IMG/VR virus record: IMGVR_UViG_3300045988_134432
Location: 1 to 41,715 of that record
Reading direction: 5' to 3' (one strand)
DNA from: a virus
DNA: 41,715 nucleotides
The first letter of the stretch is position 1. Every line of letters starts with the position of its first letter. Below are positions 15,472 to 35,899 of this stretch, in pieces. Position numbers and translations under genes: made by a program. The notes under the pieces are model-generated. The model was not told the origin of the DNA, did not search any database, and saw nothing but the letters and a program-made list of their open reading frames with translations.

Positions 15472-16068
15472 TTAAATTTCTGCTCCGGGATTCTGTTCCA
15501 TATAGTCACAGAGTTCCGAATATGTCATTTCACTTGGTTTCTTTCCACCAATACCGCCGGAACCACCATTTGTTCCTTTAACGATTGTTGGTGCAGGTTC
15601 ATCGCTTTCAAACAAAAAGCCGTTTTCTTCCTTGATCTGTGACAGCTGTTCGTCTAAACCAATGATCTTTCCATCGTTTAGTTTCAGTCCGTCCATATCA
15701 AGTAACGCTTTAACCGCTTTGCTGTTTCTGGCTTTCGCTCCTGCCAATGCTGCAGTTAACGCATAATCAAATTTCATTTCTGAAATCTGAGCATCTGCAT
15801 CACTCTTTGCTTTCTCAGCTTTCTCTTTCCAGTCATCTGCTGCCTGCTTGATGCCGTCAATATCCATGTCTTTAAACTTCTGAATCTCTGCATTTGCATC
15901 GTTTACCTGAGTTTCAAGATTCTCCGCTTTAAGCTTATAGCTGTCTCGCTCCTGAGTGATCTTCTCTGCTTTCTTCTGTTCTGCTGCGATATCCTTTCCG
16001 TTCTCAGCCATGATCTTATCGATCACTTCCTGGGAAAGATTTAAACCTTTTAAAAAATCTGTTTTCAT
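15472..16068 (-). CDS. Scaffolding protein (GP20-like)
   Basis: 198 aa. It is a coiled-coil, acidic protein (MKTDFLKGLNLSQEVIDKIMAENGKDIAAEQKK...). The RBS is GAAAGGAG, and the gene sits upstream of the capsid gene. Confidence 0.8.
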   Translation of the reverse strand: MKTDFLKGLNLSQEVIDKIMAENGKDIAAEQKKAEKITQERDSYKLKAENLETQVNDANAEIQKFKDMDIDGIKQAADDWKEKAEKAKSDADAQISEMKFDYALTAALAGAKARNSKAVKALLDMDGLKLNDGKIIGLDEQLSQIKEENGFLFESDEPAPTIVKGTNGGSGGIGGKKPSEMTYSELCDYMEQNPGAEI

Positions 16069-16297
16069 GTTACTATGCTCCTTTCGTATTAGGTTGTTTT
16101 AGGCGTGTAACCGACCGCCACGAACCGACTGTTTAAGGTCTGATCAGCTGACCAATGTTATTTCTTTGCATAAAAATAACACCCAGATCTCTCTGCGTGT
16201 CCTCTGCAGCTTAACCCTGCTGCGGGGAGATATTTGGATCACCATCCCTTCTATTCTGCTGACTTCATGTTTCGCTGCTCCTTTCTTAAAATTTCGT

Positions 16298-16502: not shown

Positions 16503-18173
16503 TCACCTCCACGGTAATTCTGGATACAATTCTTTTATTTCTTTAATTATACTTCTTAATTCATCTGCAGTCAATGTATTACGGCGATACTTATGTTTTA
16601 ACTCCTGAGCTCTGCAAACGCATTCTGACCACTGTGATCCACCAATATCATATCGATGATGTGTTATTTCATGAATCAATGTTTCAGCGGTTTTTTCAAT
16701 TGTTTTTGTGTCTGATGCATAAATACGAATATTATCTTTCCATTGCTTTCCGTATAATTTATCTGGATTATCAACATGATATGCTAATTCTATATTAATT
16801 TCCGGATGATCAACAATATATTTCATTGTCTCTTTTCCAATGTCGGACTTATTCAAATTTCTCTGAACACTCCAATGATTGATCAGATCCTTTTGTCCTA
16901 AATTAAAATCAGTTAATCGTTCTGTAAATTTAGATTCATTGACTTTTGTTTTTCTGTTACTCCATACAGCTTTCTGTGCAACACTACGACCAAATCCAAC
17001 GATATCTCCTGCTTTGTTCTTCACTGCATGGATCTGAACTCTGGCAGATTCATATCTTCTTCCTGTTTCTTTACAGAAAGCTTTCAATGCCGCTTCCTGT
17101 TTCTTTAATCTTACAGATTCTTCATTAAAGCGATTCTGTAAAGTATTTTTCAAAGTATCATCTTTCGCTTCACTGATCGCTGAATTATATCCAGCAAGTT
17201 TCCTCTTTGTTTCTCTGATCTGTCGTTCATGACTTCTCTGCATCTGACTTGCTTCATATTCTGTAAATTGCTTTCCATTGTATTCCACATTCTTTGCAGA
17301 ATAATCATCTAACATTTCTTGCGTATATGCTGGTGTCGATATTCCTGGGAAGAATGCATGGAAGTTATGGCGGCAATTCCAACCGCATAACCCTGGTCCT
17401 GTTCCATATCCTGTTGCTTCATAGAAGTTTTCATACTTCGGATCCGTCCCAGATAAACAAAAAACCTTCCCTTGCCATACGGCATGTTCCGGTCTTGCTC
17501 CTTCATGTGCAGTTGTTTCAACATAATCACAGTTCTGATCTTTTGCGTATTGCAAGTTCATTTCTGCTGCAGTCTGGTTTACTCCGGTAAGTACAGCTCT
17601 TCTTACCGCGACATCTAATTTATCGACATGCTGTGACGGATATAAGACTTCTGTTCCCTGCACTGCTGCCTCTTTGATCGCATCTGCAATTGCTTTGTCA
17701 TAACTGAATGCTCCAGAACTAACTTTCATCTGTGCTCTATTACAAGCTTGTATGTAAGCTGACTGTGATCTTACTGCGGTTGTCATCGTGAGATTATCAA
17801 GTTCCTGGCATGTTTTTCTGATATTTGCTTGCAAGATTCTCTGCATTCCATTGGACTGATTTAACTTAATATCTTCTTTGCCTGCCTGTTTGTAATATAC
17901 AGCCTCGTTCTTTAAATTCCTAACACCTGCTTCTTCATACATTCTCTGAACTTCATGCTTTTGATATCCAGATACCTGACTTACTCGCTTGATCGTATCT
18001 TTATAAACAAGACCTGCATTCTGTAAAACTTCAGCCTGATGTTTTGTTGACTCTGATACATTTCCCATCTTTACGATTCTTTTTGCCATATCAGATATGA
18101 TCGTTATTGTCAGAGTGTCAATGATGCCAAGTAACTGATCGGAGAACTTTTCCAAATACTTCGGATCAAGCAT
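16503..18173 (-). CDS. MuF/SPP1 gp7-family head morphogenesis protein with C-terminal HExxH (zincin-like) extension
   Basis: 556 aa. The MuF core reads TTAHEGARPEHAVWQGKVF...GLCGWNCRHNFHAFFPG. It is followed by a coiled linker (YEASQMQRSHERQIRETKRKL...) and a ~170-aa C-terminal domain containing HEITHH (HEITH = 16659-16673). The gene lies after the portal gene. Confidence 0.8.
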   Translation of the reverse strand: MLDPKYLEKFSDQLLGIIDTLTITIISDMAKRIVKMGNVSESTKHQAEVLQNAGLVYKDTIKRVSQVSGYQKHEVQRMYEEAGVRNLKNEAVYYKQAGKEDIKLNQSNGMQRILQANIRKTCQELDNLTMTTAVRSQSAYIQACNRAQMKVSSGAFSYDKAIADAIKEAAVQGTEVLYPSQHVDKLDVAVRRAVLTGVNQTAAEMNLQYAKDQNCDYVETTAHEGARPEHAVWQGKVFCLSGTDPKYENFYEATGYGTGPGLCGWNCRHNFHAFFPGISTPAYTQEMLDDYSAKNVEYNGKQFTEYEASQMQRSHERQIRETKRKLAGYNSAISEAKDDTLKNTLQNRFNEESVRLKKQEAALKAFCKETGRRYESARVQIHAVKNKAGDIVGFGRSVAQKAVWSNRKTKVNESKFTERLTDFNLGQKDLINHWSVQRNLNKSDIGKETMKYIVDHPEINIELAYHVDNPDKLYGKQWKDNIRIYASDTKTIEKTAETLIHEITHHRYDIGGSQWSECVCRAQELKHKYRRNTLTADELRSIIKEIKELYPELPWR

Positions 18174-19582: not shown

Positions 19583-20848
19583 TCAACTCCATTTTCGTTC
19601 ACGTCTTACGATCGTGTAAGCAAAATATCTCACTGCATCCATGCAATGATCATGTTGCTTCACTGGTTTATCTTCTCCACGTTCCAATGCCTTATCATCC
19701 CAGATATAAGAGCCAAACTCTTTGATTGTTTCTTTACAACATTCAGAGAACAGTAATACACCTAGATTTAACAGATTTCCGACAAATCGAATACCATCAA
19801 GTACATCATTCTTTGCTTTCTTAACCTTGAATCCTCTTTTCTTAAGCTCTGCGATAAAGGATGCTGCTGCCGGATCGACAATGATCGATTCAACATTGAT
19901 TCCTTCCAGGAACTCTTCCATGTCATCTGCATACTCTCCATCGGTCTTCTGCGTGGTCTCATCTCGGCCAGAATAGTAATATTCTTTCGTAGCAACCCAC
20001 TGACCTTTCTGGTTCTTCTCCCATAAAAGATATACTGTCGCATTCTGTGTACCATAATCGACACTGACGTATTTACTGCCGGTTGTTGACTGCTTTTCTG
20101 ATGTGGCATGCTTTTCTATATTAAACATGTCGTAAATAATTCCCTCAGCTACGGCCCACAGACCTAAGATATAACGTTTATAAAACACTCCGGTATACAT
20201 TGCTCGATATCGAGCTTTAATTCGCTCAGATAAGCTTAAATTGTCGTCCATCGTAAAGTGTAGATAGACAAGTTTCTTTTCATCTGCACGATCAATCCAG
20301 TTAGTTTTAAACCAATGATAAGGTCCATCGGGGTTGCAGTTGAACCAGTATTTAGATCCATCAACGGAACATCGTCCTGTTGCCTGGTTAACAAAAGATT
20401 CAGGCATCAGTGCCACTTCATCAAAAAAGACTCCTGCAAGTGTGATACCCTGTATCAAGTCCTGTGATCGCTCATCCTTACCGCCAAAGATGTAAAAATA
20501 ATTTTCTTTGCCACCTCTCCGGATAACAACTAAGTTATCAGCTCTGTGATCTTCAACGTGGTATCCTCGACTCTTAAGCATAAGCTTTAACCAAAAGAGT
20601 ACGTTTCTCCGGAAAGAACCAATCGTCTTACCGCACATACCGAAGTTCTGGCCATTGAACGTTTCCATTGCCCACATTGCAAAGGATAAACACATAGAAA
20701 CTGTTTTCCCCGATCGAATAGCTCCATCTGCTATGATTCCATCTTGATCATGCACTGGCGAATTTGGTAGCCACCAGGTAAGTATCTTTTTCTGCTTCTT
20801 AGAGAATGGCCGAAACTTAAAGACAGCTTTCTTTATTCTTCTTCCCAT
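19583..20848 (-). CDS. terL: Terminase large subunit (PBSX-type)
   Basis: 421 aa. The Walker A motif is GAIRSGKT, the Walker B-like motif is VFFDEV, and the C-terminal nuclease-region residues include DHCMDAVRY. Confidence 0.9.
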
Positions 20849-21711
20849 ACATCTGCCACCTCACCTTTTAAGGCTTCGATGAATCCATCGTCTTCTGTCT
20901 CTTCTTCGGATGTTCCGGACATGATCGCTGTCTTAGCTCTAATCTGTTCGATCTTCGCTTTCTGTTCAGCTGTAGCAATATCCATATGGTCTGCAAGCCA
21001 TTGCAAAGCTTTCATCTTATCAACCAGCTTAATGCTCGCTCCGTCTTTTCCTTGCTTCACTTCCGTGATCAGCGTTCCATCAACATCTTCAGATTGTTTG
21101 AATTTCACAGTATTAACTTCTTTTTCGAGAACCTCTTTTTCTCCAGTTTCTTTGTTTTCTACCATTACTGGACCAAAAGCACCCATAACTTGAATATTTT
21201 CTCGCCCAAACGATACATAATCTGTTACATCCGCAAATGCAATATCCATAAACTTTTGAAAGATATCTTCCTGCTTTAGCAATTCTCTGTTCATATGATT
21301 CTGCTTTAGCTGTTCAATCTCTTTTCTGATCACTGGATTCTTCATAAGTCTGCTTCCTAATACGGCAGCAGATGCATAAGTACATCCTGGATAAGCTTTC
21401 ATGTAAGCTTTCGTGTAATTAAACATCCTAGATTGATACAAACAAAAAAGCTGCTGCTGATCGGTAAGTTCATCGTTGATCACGACCTGACTTACATCCT
21501 CTGCAACGGCTTCTTTTTTGTGTGCACCCTTTTTATTTTGTGTGCACCCCTTTTGGATGCATTTTGTCTTTTTGTTCCTCGACCATGCGTATCGTTTCTT
21601 CCACGATTTCACAGTATTCATCGAGACTCCATACTTGGTAGCAATGTCTTTATACTTCATTCCGGCTACATAATCAGATTCTGCCAATATGTAGTTTTTT
21701 TCTTCATTCAC
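20833..21711 (-). CDS. terS: Terminase small subunit (N-terminal HTH plus Terminase_2-like domain)
   Basis: 292 aa. The HTH is [24 protein letters not shown]. The Terminase_2-like segment is [28 protein letters not shown]...[20 protein letters not shown]. The gene overlaps the TerL start. Confidence 0.85.
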
Positions 21712-21914: not shown

Positions 21915-21988
21915 TGGACCTCCGGGGACTCGAACCCTGGACCAATCGGTTATGAGCCGATTGCTCTGACCTGCTGAGCTAGAGGTCC
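21915..21988 (-). tRNA. tRNA with CAT anticodon (Met, or Ile2 if lysidinylated)
   Basis: The minus-strand sequence is GGACCTC-TA-GCTC-AGCAGGTCA-GAGC-A-ATCGG-CTCATAA-CCGAT-TGGTC-CAGGG-TTCGAGT-CCCCG-GAGGTCC-A. It forms a 74-nt cloverleaf with a GTTCGAGT T-loop and one A:C mismatch in the T-stem. CCA is not encoded. Confidence 0.85.
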
Positions 21989-25807: not shown

Positions 25808-25961
25808 TATCAATCACTTCCTTCTCACAATAAATGCATCCCTTATCACACTTGATCCGAACCTTTAACTTCTGCTGCTTGTCCGGACATAATCTCATCT
25901 CTCTGATTGGCTTATTGGTGATCTCACAGATGTAACCTTCAAATTCTTTCTTGTTTACCAT
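25800..25961 (-). CDS. 53-aa Cys-rich ORF (not in the ORF track)
   Basis: MVNKKEFEGYICEITNKPIREMRLCPDKQQKLKVRIKCDKGCIYCEKEVIDND. Its ATG overlaps the upstream stop (TAATG). Confidence 0.5.
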   Translation of the reverse strand: MVNKKEFEGYICEITNKPIREMRLCPDKQQKLKVRIKCDKGCIYCEKEVIDND

Positions 25962-26368
25962 TATTTTTTCCTCCATGCCATCACTACATCGTTCTTTCTA
26001 AGATCTAATTTAATGTTGTTTTCTTCTCTGACCTGCTCGATCATATCGATCCATGTCACATTTCCTGTTTCTAAACACTCTGTTTTGTCATTGAATCTTT
26101 TTTTGAATCGATCTAATCTCTTAGTTCCGAAATCAAATTCATCTTTCAAAACTATAAGACTCATGATCAATACAGTATCTAAAATCTGTAGTGTTGCATC
26201 TCTAAAATCCTGGTCAAGTTCTCTTGGATCTATTAGTGTTCGAAGCCCTGCAAGATTTCTCTGTCTTGTTACTCTCTGTAGCTCTTCTAATCCTTTTTCT
26301 TTTGCTATTTTGTCGCAGAACGCAATTCCTTCATTTCTGCCCTGCATTATATAATCTTGTTTACTCAT
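25961..26368 (-). CDS. Hypothetical protein
   Basis: 135 aa. It is the first gene downstream of the 508-bp non-coding island. The only SD-like element is AGGTAG. Confidence 0.7.
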   Translation of the reverse strand: MSKQDYIMQGRNEGIAFCDKIAKEKGLEELQRVTRQRNLAGLRTLIDPRELDQDFRDATLQILDTVLIMSLIVLKDEFDFGTKRLDRFKKRFNDKTECLETGNVTWIDMIEQVREENNIKLDLRKNDVVMAWRKK

Positions 26369-26382
26369 ACTATCTACCTATC

Positions 26383-26615
26383 TCAGACAGCTTAACTTTC
26401 TACCTGAAACAGCTTATACTGATCACATTTCTATAATTTCTTGCCCGATCATATAAACTGCCGTGATTCTTCTCTCGTGATTTGAAAAATTGTAATACCA
26501 AATCTAGTTTGTGAAAAATAAAAATACAAAAAACCTGAAAAATATGTTTACGTTTGCTTGCTTCGTTAATAGTTACTCGAAAAATCTTAATCAGATAGAA
26601 AGTTAAGCTGTCTGA
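26383..26615. repeat. Long inverted repeat IR-B1 (25-nt arms 26383-26407 / 26591-26615)
   Basis: The arms are TCAGACAGCTTAACTTTCTACCTGA and TCAGATAGAAAGTTAAGCTGTCTGA, complementary at 24 of 25 positions. The one exception is C:A on plus, which is G:U on minus. Confidence 0.9.
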
Positions 26616-26713
26616 TCGTACTCCTTTCTGCCCACTGCCTAAGGCAGCAGGCTCATGGCTTATACTGGCTGTTTCTTATGCGGTTAATAGTTACTGTGGT
26701 ATATAATTCAGTC

Positions 26714-26864
26714 CATCCGGCTGATCTCTGTCCGCATATGTGATCATCTTTTTACGCCCTGTCGCTTAAGATCATCCCGAACCCCACAACTACCACGACT
26801 ATTACTACGACTTTTAGCAACAATCTTAGGTTGTTGGTTGCTACGGACAGAGATCAACCGGATG
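26714..26864. repeat. Long inverted repeat IR-B2 (21-nt arms 26714-26734 / 26844-26864)
   Basis: The arms are CATCCGGCTGATCTCTGTCCG and CGGACAGAGATCAACCGGATG, complementary at 20 of 21 positions. The one exception is C:A on plus, which is G:U on minus. Confidence 0.9.
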
Positions 26865-26876
26865 CTTTATTTTTTC

Positions 26877-27608
26877 TTAGCTTGCAGCAAGCAACTTATT
26901 AATAAAATACTGCTGCCCTTTACCAGTAACCTTTGTAGTCTTTCTGATCTTTGTCGTTCCATCCGGATTTGTGATCGTTCTTTCTTCAACTTCAAACAAT
27001 CCCATTTCCATGCTCTTTTGTGTTGGCATATTCCAACTTGGACCTCTTCTTTGGATTAAATATCCGTTATTTCTGAGTTTTTGAAACAGTCTGTTTTGAC
27101 CAATATCAATTCCTTTTTGCTTAAGAATTTTTGCTAAATCTCCGATCAGAATAGAATCTTTACTCGCTGTTACTGCATCAGCAAATATCTCCTTAGGCTT
27201 CATACGTTCATTATCTTCAATCAATGCAGCTTTCTCTGTCTTTAATTTGTCTATTGTTCTATCAGCCATCTTTAATGCTCTCGCAAAGATCTGTTCTGGT
27301 GTATTCCAGGCTTTTTCTAAGTCAAGGAAGTACTGTCTAATCTGTTTTCCCTTTTCAGTTCTAGACATTAAACAAATATGTTTTGCCATATCTACAGACA
27401 TTTTATAATCCTGTAGTTCGCGTTGTGCTCCATTGTTTACAACCGTACCTGTAAGTACACTTGTAAAATCTTCGTTTTCTACGAATCCTTGTGAATTTGA
27501 TTCAAACCAAGCTGAGAATCTTTTATTAATCTCAAGTGCTTCGTGTAAATCCCTTGCTGATACTGTTGGTTCTTCTGTATCGTAGTTAACAGGAATTAAA
27601 TTATCCAT
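26877..27608 (-). CDS. Antirepressor (AntA/ORF6N-like N-terminus, KilAC-like C-terminus)
   Basis: 243 aa. The N-terminal part reads VSARDLHEALEINKRFSAWFESNSQGFVENEDF and the C-terminal part reads ILIGDLAKILKQKGIDIGQNRLFQKLRNNGYLI. Confidence 0.7.
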   Translation of the reverse strand: MDNLIPVNYDTEEPTVSARDLHEALEINKRFSAWFESNSQGFVENEDFTSVLTGTVVNNGAQRELQDYKMSVDMAKHICLMSRTEKGKQIRQYFLDLEKAWNTPEQIFARALKMADRTIDKLKTEKAALIEDNERMKPKEIFADAVTASKDSILIGDLAKILKQKGIDIGQNRLFQKLRNNGYLIQRRGPSWNMPTQKSMEMGLFEVEERTITNPDGTTKIRKTTKVTGKGQQYFINKLLAAS

Positions 27609-28470
27609 ACGTTATGTCATCTCCTAACTGTTTCTTTAACAACTGCTTCTCCAGATTCTCGTAATCACAATCTTTGAATTCTCGCTGTGTAAAATTGTGT
27701 ATAGTTTCTTTTTTCTTTGGCTTCGGTGTTGATTTCTTCCGTTTCCTTGATGTAGGGAAGAAACTCTTATATCCTCCACCAAATGCTTTTCTTACAATGC
27801 CCAACTTATCAGAATCATTCTCAGCCAGAGAATCTAGTTCTTCTTTCAAGGCATTGATCTGTTCTGCAGATAATGTTGGGCCAGTATGATTCCTCATATC
27901 AAGATAAAGACAGAACTCTCTGTTCAGATCTGGATTGCTATAATAATATTTACTTTCCTTTACTTTACTTTCCTTTATGGATTCTTCTCGGGAATTATCA
28001 TTATTTTTCTTGGAATTATCCGTATTATTCTCAGAATTATCTTCAAAATGGGTAACTTTAATAAAAGGTTCTGTTTCTTCTTCATTTAAAAGCCAGAACC
28101 TGTCGACTTTTATTGGATTCTTCTTAGCTCTTGTTTTTACTGCTAACTGGAATCTCTTCTGTATTCCGGCAGAAGTCAGGACAGCGTCCGACTGGAAAAG
28201 CTGTTTATCAAACATCGACCGTTCCAATAAGAATGTCAAGACTTGCTTCACCTTATCACTATTCATGTTCAGATCATCTGACACGATATAGTAAAAATCA
28301 TCATCTACAATGATGTAATATCCATTTCTATATATTTCACAAAGAAGATAAATGAAAATTGTGATCCCGTCTGCTCCATATCTGGATTTCAAGATCTTTA
28401 TCTTCCTGTCCGAAAAGAAATCGCAATCCAAAGAAAAATAATCGATGCCTTGTTTTTTCTGTCTGGCCAA
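27601..28470 (-). CDS. Replication organiser-like protein (DUF4373 / Lin1244-type N-terminal domain, DnaD-like)
   Basis: 289 aa. The TTG start is preceded by AAAGGAG. The N-terminus GIDYFSLDCDFFSDRKIKILKSRYGADGITIFIYLLCEIY is the DUF4373 pattern. Confidence 0.65.
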   Translation of the reverse strand: MARQKKQGIDYFSLDCDFFSDRKIKILKSRYGADGITIFIYLLCEIYRNGYYIIVDDDFYYIVSDDLNMNSDKVKQVLTFLLERSMFDKQLFQSDAVLTSAGIQKRFQLAVKTRAKKNPIKVDRFWLLNEEETEPFIKVTHFEDNSENNTDNSKKNNDNSREESIKESKVKESKYYYSNPDLNREFCLYLDMRNHTGPTLSAEQINALKEELDSLAENDSDKLGIVRKAFGGGYKSFFPTSRKRKKSTPKPKKKETIHNFTQREFKDCDYENLEKQLLKKQLGDDITYG

Positions 28471-33840: not shown

Positions 33841-34233
33841 TCAAACGCTTATCATTTCAGTTGCAAAAAACTTTTTTGCATTTATGAAATACCTGTGCTT
33901 TTTTTCACTTGTCCGGATTGCATATCCCCATGGAAAAATCCCTTGAATCAGTCCTTTTTCGATTGTTGGAACACCCATTCCCATCAAATACGCAACTTCT
34001 TTCGGGGTTAACGTCTCTATTTTCTTTTTAGGAATTACTATTTCTTCGAAGTAATTCTCTGGAAGATCAAATGCTTCTGCAATCTCATTTCGTCTCGCTT
34101 TTGTTGGTTCCGAATCTCCAGACATCCACTTACTGACGGTCGATCTACTTACACCGCAGATTCTGGACAACTCTACTTGATTGATGTTTTGATCTGCCAT
34201 TACTTTTTTAAGCCTGTCCCTGAACACTTTCAT
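33841..34233 (-). CDS. XRE-family HTH protein with a second C-terminal HTH-like region (early regulator)
   Basis: The ATG at 34233 is preceded by AAAGGTAGGTG; the track's first codon (34236) is a GTG. The HTH is INQVELSRICGVSRSTVSKWMSG. Confidence 0.7.
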   Translation of the reverse strand: MKVFRDRLKKVMADQNINQVELSRICGVSRSTVSKWMSGDSEPTKARRNEIAEAFDLPENYFEEIVIPKKKIETLTPKEVAYLMGMGVPTIEKGLIQGIFPWGYAIRTSEKKHRYFINAKKFFATEMISV

Positions 34234-34247
34234 CACCTACCTTTCTT

Positions 34248-34353
34248 CAGATGGCTTAACTCTCCGTCCGATTGAGTGCTATTTTTAATGATTAACCAAT
34301 TTTATGGAGGAGTTTCGGGGTTATATGTATCGGACAGAGGATTAAGCCATCTG
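34248..34353. repeat. Long inverted repeat IR-C (25-nt arms 34248-34272 / 34329-34353), paralogous to IR-B1
   Basis: The arms are CAGATGGCTTAACTCTCCGTCCGAT and ATCGGACAGAGGATTAAGCCATCTG. On the minus-strand RNA, 22 of 25 positions are Watson-Crick, two are G:U and one is a mismatch. Confidence 0.9.
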
Positions 34354-34364
34354 CCATTATTCTG

Positions 34365-34393
34365 TTGTCTTTCTTTCATATATCTCCTATACT
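34365..34393 (+). promoter_or_regulatory. Candidate promoter TTGTCT-17 nt-TATACT for the plus-strand membrane-protein gene
   Basis: The hexamers lie at 34365-34370 and 34388-34393. The AAAGGAG RBS and the ATG at 34446 lie downstream. Confidence 0.45.
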
Positions 34394-34445: not shown

Positions 34446-35276
34446 ATGAAATACGATAAAATTAATTCGTTTTCTAAAGAGCTATCGTCAATTCAAAAAA
34501 CTTTAGATTCATATAAAGGATTCACGCAAGCATTCACAAAAAGATCTAACTTTTATGCAAAAACCATTCCACATTCTGCTTTAGCTGCATCCTTAAATGC
34601 GAAAAAATTTGTTCCAAAACCTACGATGGTAGATGCTATTGCTAGCAAAGTGAAATACACTGCAGCCTTAAATGTTAAAGTTATGGGCCTATCCATGGAC
34701 AACTCTGCGCTTGCATCCGCAATTAAACTCTCGTCATGCATAAAAGATTCATATCTAAATGGTCCTGCTGTAAGTGGAGTATGTAAGAGTATACAAAAGC
34801 TTCAAAATACATATACTTCTTCTCTCCAGCAACAGGCTACAGAGTTAATAATTACTTCGAAAGAAATACTTTCTGCTTTTGAAAGTTCTTCAGATTTTGA
34901 TGTGGATCAATTTGAATTTGATCAGGATACAGTTTCTGCACCTATAAGTTTTGTAGATTCCATCTCTGATATTTTTGATAACACTCCATCTATTTCAGAT
35001 ATTTTGTTACCTATTAAGGAAAAGATATCTATCAAACTCTTTATTTCCATCGTAACAACTATTATTTCTGCTATTACTGTTTGTTGCCTCATTACTCAAA
35101 ACAAACTTCAAGCTGAGTCTAATCAAATATCCAAAGAGCAATTACAATTGGATAAAAAATACAAAAAACTTGAGTTTGAGCAAAAAGAACGTGAGCTAGA
35201 TCAAAAAGATCGTGAATTAGATTTAAAAGATGAAGAATTACATTTAAATCTTAATAAGTCCGATTCAAACAATTGA
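34446..35276 (+). CDS. Membrane-anchored coiled-coil protein, reverse-oriented moron inside the early region
   Basis: 276 aa. It has one TM segment (LFISIVTTIISAITVCCLITQ) followed by a repetitive charged tail (KERELDQKDRELDLKDEEL). I recognise no family. Confidence 0.75.
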   Translation: MKYDKINSFSKELSSIQKTLDSYKGFTQAFTKRSNFYAKTIPHSALAASLNAKKFVPKPTMVDAIASKVKYTAALNVKVMGLSMDNSALASAIKLSSCIKDSYLNGPAVSGVCKSIQKLQNTYTSSLQQQATELIITSKEILSAFESSSDFDVDQFEFDQDTVSAPISFVDSISDIFDNTPSISDILLPIKEKISIKLFISIVTTIISAITVCCLITQNKLQAESNQISKEQLQLDKKYKKLEFEQKERELDQKDRELDLKDEELHLNLNKSDSNN

Positions 35277-35286
35277 TTCTCAAAAT

Positions 35287-35499
35287 TTAAATCCAAAAAT
35301 ATATACTCACTCTTCTCAAAAACAAAGCGAACAATACAACATCTAGTGCCATTCGAATCAGTATAAGGTCCTGTTTCTCTGTAGATTCAGGATCTTGCTT
35401 TTTTACTCGCGAAAGTCGGTATATATTAATCCCAAAACTTATCAGCCATACCACACACGCGATATATCTTGTCATATCTACTGTTTTCGTCTTTCCCAC
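35287..35499 (-). CDS. Small two-TM membrane protein
   Basis: 70 aa as tracked. The GTG start is fused to the AGGAGG, so an internal ATG (MTRYIACV...) is an alternative start. Confidence 0.5.
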   Translation of the reverse strand: MGKTKTVDMTRYIACVVWLISFGINIYRLSRVKKQDPESTEKQDLILIRMALDVVLFALFLRRVSIYFWI

Positions 35500-35563
35500 C
35501 TCCTGGTTATTTAGTTTCGTTTTTGTAGATTTACTAATGAGCGCAAGCTCGGAAGTTTGTTAA

Positions 35564-35578
35564 GTCACTAAACGTGAC
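35564..35578. promoter_or_regulatory. Operator-like palindrome GTCAC-N5-GTGAC
   Basis: GTCACTAAACGTGAC overlaps the stop codon of the Cro-like gene. It shares the TCAC-N5-GTGA core with the sites at 35841 and 35887. Confidence 0.4.
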
Positions 35579-35783
35579 ATTTTTCATCAAAAAAAATTTC
35601 CTGTACACTTTTGCCGTAATATGAAGCTAATTTAACTTTAACAACATCACGAGGAATGCGTTCTCCATTTTCATACATTGATATAGCAGATACACTTATG
35701 CCAACAGCATCGGCAACAGTTTCTCTCGAGATGTTTCCTCTTAACTCTCTTAGTCGACACCCAATTTCTTTGGCATCCAACAT
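35568..35783 (-). CDS. Cro-like XRE-family HTH repressor
   Basis: 71 aa. The HTH is ISRETVADAVGISVSAISMYENGERIP. The gene is divergent from the CI-like gene. Confidence 0.8.
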   Translation of the reverse strand: MLDAKEIGCRLRELRGNISRETVADAVGISVSAISMYENGERIPRDVVKVKLASYYGKSVQEIFFDEKCHV

Positions 35784-35827
35784 TTTCTCACTTCCTTTCT
35801 TTATTGTCTTACCTTTGCTTCAACTAT

Positions 35828-35856
35828 ATATTATCATATGTCACGTATTGTGTCAA
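35828..35856 (-). promoter_or_regulatory. Early lytic promoter (TTGACA-17 nt-TAATAT) for the Cro-like gene
   Basis: On the minus strand, TTGACA lies at 35856-35851 and TAATAT at 35833-35828. An operator-like site lies in the spacer and the -35 region. Confidence 0.6.
35841..35853. promoter_or_regulatory. Operator-like site TCAC-N5-GTGT within the early promoter
   Basis: TCACGTATTGTGT is a degenerate copy of the TCAC-N5-GTGA motif. Confidence 0.4.
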
Positions 35857-35886
35857 CACTTTTTGTGACATTTCTATTTACTTTTT

Positions 35887-35899
35887 TCACGTTACGTGA
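35887..35899. promoter_or_regulatory. Operator-like perfect palindrome TCACGT-T-ACGTGA
   Basis: TCACGTTACGTGA lies between a weak plus-strand promoter candidate (TTTACT-17-TATTCT) and the repressor gene. Confidence 0.5.

Follow-up and report, generated by a model that had tools for sequence, protein, structure and literature searches.

Two putative structured RNA elements in an intercistronic island of a gut phage early operon

Positions 26369-26876 of IMG/VR virus record IMGVR_UViG_3300045988_134432 form a 508-bp island free of open reading frames (ORFs) within the early operon of a temperate phage. The window, by which we mean the whole stretch of DNA analyzed, covers positions 1 to 41,715 of that record (41,715 nucleotides). 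A first-pass annotation, made from the letters alone, had offered a single large RNA, a replication origin, or both as explanations for the island. With moderate confidence we read it as a composite of two independent cis-acting structured RNA elements, E2 and E1, in the sense transcript of the early operon. Because that operon runs on the minus strand, the gene-sense strand of the island is minus. E2 (~151 nt) follows the antirepressor gene ant, and E1 (~235 nt) precedes the next gene block; coordinates of these and other features are collected in Table 1.

Each element is closed by one of the two long inverted repeats that the first-pass annotation had listed, and the coordinates and pairing it gave are correct: the arms are 24/25 complementary with 183 nt between them in E1, and 20/21 complementary with 109 nt between them in E2. 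Each arm was found at its two sites only within the window, and no match to either arm arose in shuffled sequence (0/100 shuffles). The sole mismatch in each helix is, as had been noticed, C:A on the plus strand and G:U on the minus strand. Folding of the island gives -170.5 kcal/mol (z = -10.4) for the minus (sense) strand versus -127.4 kcal/mol (z = -5.8) for the plus strand.

Relatives were collected by exact-match scans of IMG/VR with the helix arms and conserved interior motifs as queries, and these scans returned 49, 71, 87 and at least 119 contigs with element motifs. Judged by sample number, the matching contigs look like human-gut metagenomes, and copies of E1 and E2 also occur in one Anaerostipes hadrus metagenome-assembled genome (MAG) and one Clostridiales MAG. 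There is one copy of each element per phage, in constant orientation and syntenic position. BLAST of the island against the INPHARED phages and the PLSDB plasmids gave no match. Matches to the E2 core in a genome collection (L102-L104) were rejected as low-complexity coding repeats, not homologues. The E1 copies fall into seven sequence families, A to G, with the window in family A.

E1 is predicted to fold as a three-way junction. Over 61 unique copies, 98.7% of cells are paired in the closing helix P1, where 10 of the 25 pairs have changed on both sides, and 98.8% in helix P2, where 2 of 8 have done so; in a control with the 3′ partners slid by 1-3 columns, pairing was 34-45%. When the whole E1 structure was compared with 500 shuffles, the observed value was reached in none of them (0/500) for four of five measures, and in 145/500 for the fifth, which counts further pair types. 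Families A-F all have this three-way fold as their minimum-free-energy structure, and so does G. The helices keep pairing through two-sided changes, and the suggestion that RNA helices are transcribed with the operon gains support from these compensatory changes, from G:U wobbles specific to the sense strand and from the recurrence of one fold in seven sequence families.

Inside P1, the sequence of hairpin helix P3 is wholly different between families with pairing retained, and P2 (GAUUCUUC with GAAGAAUC) encloses an AU-rich stretch of ~105-135 nt across families A-G. The blocks in this loop are kept across the aligned E1 families with an inter-block spacing that varies from 11 to 22 nt, and because the spacing varies they do not make up a fixed promoter; a candidate promoter internal to E1 was rejected on this ground and because its TACAAT is conserved and its -35 region is not. 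A leader promoter candidate, TTAACC-17-TATAAG, was also rejected, since its spacing is not conserved. One of the blocks, which we call motif M, belongs to the 13-bp direct repeat GTTAATAGTTACT reported by the first-pass annotation; both copies are where it placed them, and they are also kept in relatives. The three TGAAAAAT copies reported for the AT-rich core are present, but their conservation among relatives is loose. A search for a complementary partner of motif M found none, scanning the entire sense transcript for RNA duplexes with the interiors, as a test for trans targets, gave self hits only, and no conserved small ORF was found in E1, E2 or the third element, E3, described below.

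E2 is a fold-back element. Its outer helix, examined in 45-46 unique copies, has 21 pairs of which 4 have changed on both sides, and two of its pairs are conserved U:G. Predicted folds range from -60 to -73 kcal/mol on the sense strand versus -48 to -53 kcal/mol on the antisense strand. Conserved pairing is scarce in the interior, which holds instead a near-invariant G/U-rich core. A Val-rich frame (MLLKVVVIVVVVVGFGMILSDRA, window 26744-26815, minus) crosses this core and is open in all copies. No Shine-Dalgarno (SD) sequence stands at any of its candidate starts, and the start moves with indels (TTG -12, ATG -18, TTG -48, or an internal GTG alone giving 14 aa); the frame is probably non-coding. 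On the plus strand, TATAAT (26702-26707) lies 6 nt ahead of the E2 helix. As to the two local hairpins listed for the island, that at 26635-26647 is the core of a conserved 10-bp hairpin (hairpin H), whereas that at 26815-26843 is partly conserved, with 5 bp in RNAalifold.

Substitution patterns bear on which strand carries the folds. One-sided changes in the helices of E1, E2 and E3 gave, on the sense strand, 33 G:U versus 10 A:C, whereas the corresponding transitions in unpaired columns of the same alignments numbered 89 versus 79 (Fisher p = 0.005, binomial p = 0.0006). This unpaired-column control rules out mutational bias as the source of the G:U excess. In stability, the sense folds exceed the antisense folds by 10-25 kcal/mol. 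Together, the compensatory changes and the G:U excess on the sense strand show that the folds are selected on the gene-sense strand. Selection acts on this one strand, and RNA is the natural reading of such a pattern.

The claim that the island is free of ORFs holds for this window, and the ORFs of 30-37 aa that can be drawn there are frame-broken by 1-6-nt indels in relatives. The 508-bp island is likewise real in the window, but it is not a single element, since most relatives have a helix-turn-helix (HTH) gene between the two helices. BLAST against related loci places ~220 extra bases of most relatives at window 26618-26627; these bases make up a gene on the sense strand, equipped with its own SD, whose 64-71-aa product is an HTH_Tnp_1/HTH_28 protein (for example, locus L001 5807-6033). 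The gene is absent from the window and from two or three other contigs, having been lost by deletion between two AAAGGAG repeats. The 508-bp island came about through this deletion, and the stretch between the two elements is the remnant leader of this lost small gene. Other relatives have a second or double HTH gene after E1. For the small HTH proteins, Pfam and PHROGs gave an HTH of the IS3-OrfA type only, and solved-structure searches with the HTH protein and with the protein of the phrog_17690 gene, downstream of the island, were uninformative.

E1 and E2 recombine independently, and either order occurs. E2 is found without an adjacent E1; E1 is found without E2 or any HTH gene (family E); and C-type phages have E1 first, followed by a double-HTH gene, two genes and E2. 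Homology between phages ends exactly at the outer edges of the E1, E2 and E3 helices (window 26381, 26872 and 34353, and the matching locus positions), so that the elements coincide with mosaic recombination junctions. An inverton was considered and rejected: all 74 E1 and 74 E2 copies retrieved at that stage were collinear with their flanks, with no inverted copies and no conserved promoter inside. In family D (L090 6081-6590), ~500 nt with a reverse-strand 51-aa hydrophobic ORF are inserted upstream of E1.

A window-wide scan for long inverted repeats yielded E3, a hairpin in the early-operon leader, 7.5 kb from the island; immediately downstream of its helix come the SD and start of a cro-like HTH_3 gene. 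It is conserved in ~30 fetched related loci, with UA, UG and CG alternating at three pairs. Compared by eye, the arms of E3 match those of E1 at 17/24 positions and the inner portion of the E2 arms at 15/21. An exact CAGANNGCTTAA is found only in the E1 and E3 arms, and E3 and E2 have an exact CTCTGTCCG in common. The three elements share arms, not interiors (183, 109 and 56 nt enclosed), and helix length is 21-29 bp in nearly all unique copies. We take E1, E2 and E3 to be one homologous family of long-range helices, all in sense orientation and all intercistronic or in the leader. No further members were found in the window. BLAST with the E3 leader yielded nothing beyond an uninformative 72-nt match to Ruminococcus phage RG-TP1, located upstream of E3.

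Two further observations concern E3. An upstream ORF of 24 codons with its own SD (UAGGAGAU, window 34306-34380, minus) starts in the leader and crosses the 5′ arm; it is frame-broken by indels in relatives, and a ribosome translating it would melt the E3 helix. The E3 loop has a palindrome, TTAATCATTAA (34296-34306; TTAATTATTAA in relatives), similar to motif M (GTAACTATTAAC), which is found in E1 and in the flank of E2; the palindrome may be an operator or a binding motif common to these sites.

E1 has a particular relation to ribosome binding. An SD, AAAGGAG, lies 1-5 nt 5′ of P1 in every E1 family except D, and this upstream SD is predicted to be unpaired with a probability of 0.6-0.98. 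In four families the gene downstream of E1 is of the HTH type and has no SD of its own. The distances from SD to P1 and from P1 to the start codon in these are 5 + 9 nt (family B), 2 + 10 nt (C), 2 + 11 nt (G) and 1 + 9 nt (F), so that the spacer sums to 10-14 nt outside the helix. In family A, represented by the window, the distances are 5 + 14 nt, a sum of 19 nt, and the downstream phrog_17690 gene has its own SD, AGGU. Family E has another small gene downstream, with its own SD, 25 nt from P1 to the start; family D has a phrog_17690-like gene with its own SD, 27 nt from P1 to the start and no upstream SD. Where the HTH gene has no E1 before it, an ordinary SD stands 5 nt from the ATG. Because the downstream gene lacks its own SD in families B, C, F and G, this geometry implies a ribosome-binding site that would there be split and bridged by ~235 nt.

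There is precedent on a smaller scale in phage T4, where hairpins shorten the spacing between SD and start from 22 to 5 nt in gene 38 and from 27 to 11 nt in gene 25 (PMC3014915). The arrangements are alike in placing RNA structure between SD and start, with an outside-helix spacing of 10-14 nt here against 5 and 11 nt in T4. They differ in that a simple hairpin removes 16-17 nt in T4, whereas the structure here is a three-way junction of ~235 nt; in that the likeness applies to families B, C, F and G and not clearly to the window; and in that the case here is known from sequence geometry rather than from mutation.

The most likely function of the elements, put forward with about the same moderate confidence as their composite nature, is intercistronic RNA processing of the RNase III type together with translation control. 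Helices E3, E2 and E1 would form in the polycistronic early mRNA, transcription presumably passing through the elements, and would serve as substrates of the host double-strand-specific RNase III or as blocks to other nucleases. Cutting would divide the early transcript into units of differing stability and free or expose the conserved interiors. P1 would also draw the SD, which stands 5′ of it, close to the start codon, which stands 3′. A downstream HTH gene without an SD of its own would then need the E1 fold for its translation, as a giant split ribosome-binding site; in this window E1 would act as a processing and translation-modulating element abutting the weak SD of the downstream gene.

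Several properties of the elements suit such a role. The transcribed strand carries double-stranded helices of at least ~20 bp (21-29 bp, covarying, with G:U on the sense strand), and we take this length to be about the minimum for an RNase III substrate. All three lie between cistrons or in the leader, with no terminator between the genes: a search of the island found no terminator and fewer promoter-like sites than expected by chance, and an intrinsic terminator was rejected because the sense strand has no U-tract after any of the three helices. The R sites of phage T7 are known phage RNase III processing sites, and classical sites of this kind are simple hairpins with internal loops; we know of no such processing sites for gut Lachnospiraceae hosts. 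Bacillus subtilis RNase III reportedly cuts long-range intramolecular mRNA helices that span hundreds of nucleotides and in whose distal box U-G pairs are overrepresented (PMC11780869), and the early mRNA of phage SP82 is an RNase III target according to references given in PMC4838370. With the T7 R, SP82, lambda N-leader/sib and B. subtilis examples the elements share several related double-stranded helices of at least ~20 bp, a place within a single polycistronic early transcript, either in its leader or in a gap between cistrons, beside ribosome-binding sites, and long-range pairing across 50-200 nt that tolerates wobble pairs. Unlike those of classical sites, the helices here are perfect to an unusual degree and surround large interiors that are conserved (56, 109 and 183 nt), and cleavage is a prediction. 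By type, the elements group with the intercistronic processing hairpins of phages and with structured regions of translation initiation; new with respect to the known kind are the large enclosed conserved domains, the homologous family of three members and the ~235 nt with which E1 spans a ribosome-binding site.

A number of points weigh against this account. Cleavage, stable products and effects on translation are drawn from sequence inference. The interiors contain near-invariant sequence (the G/U-rich core of E2, the AU-rich blocks of E1, motif M); a plain RNase III site needs no conserved interior, and a further partner or function is therefore likely, which suggests that the enclosed RNAs or loops do something more. 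Promoter-like and terminator-like signals lie on the opposite strand of E2. Split-site function cannot be general, because the downstream gene has its own SD in the window and in families A, D and E, and family D wholly lacks the upstream SD. A double RNase III cut of P1 would part the SD from the start codon, so that the two proposed roles may conflict. Finally, G:T wobbles also fit hairpins of single-stranded DNA, and the sense strand may have a role at the DNA level.

A bolder version of the same account seems to us rather doubtful, though worth stating. In it, E1 would be an RNA domain of ~235 nt set between the two parts of a ribosome-binding site. The 25-bp helix that closes it would rebuild the SD-AUG geometry, and its conserved single-stranded loops would bind a factor (the adjacent HTH protein or a host protein), which would make a new class of translational switch responsive to a protein or ligand; E1 to E3 would be a family of processing stalks whose excised interiors are stable phage non-coding RNAs.

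Whatever their exact role, the elements are undescribed RNA motifs with good comparative support, abundant among phages of human-gut Lachnospiraceae with more than 100 IMG/VR contigs, and absent from Rfam and the plasmid collection; the 72-nt leader match apart, the cultured-phage collection gave no element match. If they are RNase III sites, they show partitioning of early gene expression in phages of a major gut clade. If E1 bridges ~235 nt, it extends the T4 split-site precedent roughly tenfold and gives a tractable model in which to study the amount of structure that the 30S platform can accommodate. The coincidence of helices with mosaic junctions is relevant to the exchange of phage modules.

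Other explanations account for part of these data. E2 may be regarded as a two-strand module, in which a plus-strand cis-antisense RNA of ~160 nt, running from TATAAT to the T-tract, would pair with the mRNA downstream of ant; the whole could resemble a type I toxin-antitoxin system, with a toxin encoded by the Val-rich frame (23-35 aa) locked in the fold-back helix. Phages P22 and P1 regulate their antirepressor genes with antisense RNAs. On the plus strand, all E2 copies retain both TATAAT, at a constant 6 nt from the helix, and the T-rich tract behind the helix, though the sequence beyond differs, and a near-consensus TTGTCA-18-TATAAT promoter appears where E2 has no adjacent E1; in the commonest context, however, the -35 region is poor, and a terminator with a 109-nt loop is atypical. 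On the antisense strand the two conserved U:G pairs become A:C mismatches, and the sense folds are far more stable. The Val-rich frame is open throughout, but its candidate starts all lack a preceding SD and move with indels, and hydrophobic codons are expected from any G/U-rich sequence. Known fold-back-locked type I toxin mRNAs with fully overlapping antisense RNAs are those of hok/Sok and Ibs/Sib, which E2, alone of the elements, resembles in its 5′-3′ closing helix around a short hydrophobic frame and in its antisense promoter-like and terminator-like signals; it differs from them in lacking an SD and a consistent start, in being embedded in an operon without its own promoter, and in having a helix optimized on the sense strand only. 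We judge this explanation unlikely. Lower still we place the idea that the elements are DNA-level entities, whether foldback insertions or others like MITEs (miniature transposable elements with inverted repeats), related to the adjacent IS3-OrfA-like HTH genes, or conserved linkers for module crossover, with RNA structure as a tolerated by-product. It would explain the long terminal inverted repeats with related arms, the breaks in interphage homology exactly at the outer edges of three helices, the HTH_Tnp_1 and HTH_28 matches of neighboring small proteins and the resemblance of E1 to an insertion between SD and start codon. Yet each phage has one syntenic copy in constant orientation, no target-site duplication is visible, no catalytic transposase domain was found among the neighboring genes scanned, E1 occurs in family E without any HTH gene nearby, and the covariation of P2-P4 and the strand-specific wobbles are unexpected of inert DNA repeats. 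The natural comparison is with bacterial MITEs, among them the Correia (NEMIS) elements of Neisseria (PMC2649163, PMC10969869). Correia elements are similar in size, have inverted-repeat ends and are reportedly bound or cut by RNase III (PMC2649163), and the likeness extends to a length of 100-250 bp, long terminal inverted repeats and co-transcribed hairpins that can be RNase III targets, co-transcription being presumed in our case; unlike them, the present elements are single-copy and syntenic, lack target-site duplications, have covarying interior helices and share arms but not interiors.

An origin of lytic replication, as the first-pass annotation had considered, or a single-stranded-DNA initiation signal with hairpins on one strand, might be sought in the island and especially in the AT-rich core of E1, where ATTTTTCA motifs recur loosely and from which the replisome organiser is one gene away; hairpins of single-stranded DNA could also accommodate G:T wobbles. 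The comparative data make this very improbable. E1 and E2 at 92-99% nucleotide identity, E1 itself at 92-98%, accompany organiser alleles of ~95% and ~53% identity and differing replication modules; near-identical copies are also found in phages without the organiser gene and with different early modules (for E1, families C, D, F and G). Cumulative GC skew has no turning point at the island, strand-specific wobble pairing is unexpected of a double-stranded origin, and the position of E1 between SD and start, like the homologous E3 in the leader, fits function in mRNA. The organiser gene has iteron-like tandem repeats of its own (15-nt x 2 and 21-nt x 2.9, at 27949-28041), which are the better candidate for a phage origin than the island; in SPP1 the origin is located inside the replisome-organiser gene (PMC6316719). 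A false origin candidate is in this way removed, and the repeats internal to the organiser gene are indicated instead. The other early proposal, one ornate non-coding RNA of ~480 nt, or the whole 508 bp, in the ROOL/GOLLD class, we regard as having almost no chance of being right. The very negative folding energy of the sense strand (z = -10.4) speaks for it, and association with Firmicutes phages, long non-coding stretches and strong predicted structure are common to both. The elements are nonetheless much smaller than ROOL or GOLLD RNAs and lie within mRNA between cistrons as two separable modules: a protein gene splits the halves in most relatives, the halves occur alone or reversed, and no conserved pairing joins E1 to E2. 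The Rfam check that had been recommended found nothing at gathering scores in 26100-27100, and a scan of the same interval with Rfam 15 at E up to 10 gave, as its best matches, snoRNA or IS009 noise of 13-18 bits. Two structured elements within the early mRNA remain our preferred reading.

Table 1. Features of the island, the leader and neighboring genes (window coordinates; sequences given in the sense orientation)
Feature	Coordinates	Strand	Remarks
E1, three-way-junction element, ~235 nt	26383-26615	minus	P1 arms 26383-26407 and 26591-26615; P1 24-29 bp in relatives
E1 P2 5′ strand, GAUUUUUC	26579-26586	minus	pairs with 26465-26472 (GAAGAAUC)
E1 AU-rich, weakly structured loop	26473-26578	minus	blocks: motif M copy 2 (26565-26577), AAACAUAUUUUUC, CUAGAUUUGGU, UACAAU
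E1 P3-P4 hairpin	26408-26464	minus	P4 (GAUC-based) covaries
Spacer from P1 to next start codon, 14 nt	26369-26382	minus	holds weak own SD AGGU
SD AAAGGAG	26621-26627	minus	immediately 5′ of E1; overlaps deletion junction 26618-26627
Hairpin H, 10 bp	26630-26652	minus	4-6 nt upstream of SD; in families A, C, D, F, G with altered stem sequences
Motif M copy 1, AGUAACUAUUAAC	26683-26695	minus	leader downstream of E2
3′ flank of E2, GGACUGAAUUAUAUA	26700-26713	minus	invariant in all contexts, even where sequence beyond differs
E2, fold-back element, ~151 nt	26714-26864	minus	arms 26714-26734 and 26844-26864, 21-23 bp counting G:U; 109-nt interior
Near-invariant G/U-rich core of E2 interior, AAAAGUCGUAGUAAUAGUCGUGGUAGUUGUGG	26784-26815	minus	kept in all E2 families
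A-rich linker, ant stop codon to E2	26865-26876	minus	A-rich in every context, sequence varies; plus strand is the T-tract after the helix
E3 hairpin	34248-34353	minus	arms 34248-34272 and 34329-34353 (25 nt), 56-nt loop; early-operon leader
phrog_17690 gene	25961-26368	minus	downstream of island
Antirepressor gene ant	26877-27608	minus	directly upstream of island
Lin1244-type replisome organiser gene	27601-28470	minus	
Integrase gene and CI-like gene	35.9-39 kb	plus	

The window is a temperate siphovirus-type genome or prophage, and the host group of the phage is gut Lachnospiraceae of the Anaerostipes type. The long minus-strand operon begins at the cro-like HTH_3 gene (33841-34236), which is followed by YqaJ, DUF1351, RecT and then RusA; the terminase and structural genes are further downstream of the phrog_17690 gene.

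Some other features of the window were recorded in passing. Within the structural region, a match to the Rfam GP20-b RNA at 16090-16153 (minus; 47.2 bits against a gathering score of 36.2) sits between ORFs 15472-16068 and 16503-18173. A tRNA-Met gene (anticodon CAT; 21915-21988, minus) lies just upstream of gene 20833-21711, the first of the packaging block, which itself lies upstream of the presumed large-terminase ORF 19583-20848. There is a 619-bp ORF-poor gap (35277-35895) upstream of the CI-like HTH_3 gene, and three 21-nt tandem repeats (35163-35248) lie at the 3′ end of the neighboring 276-aa gene.

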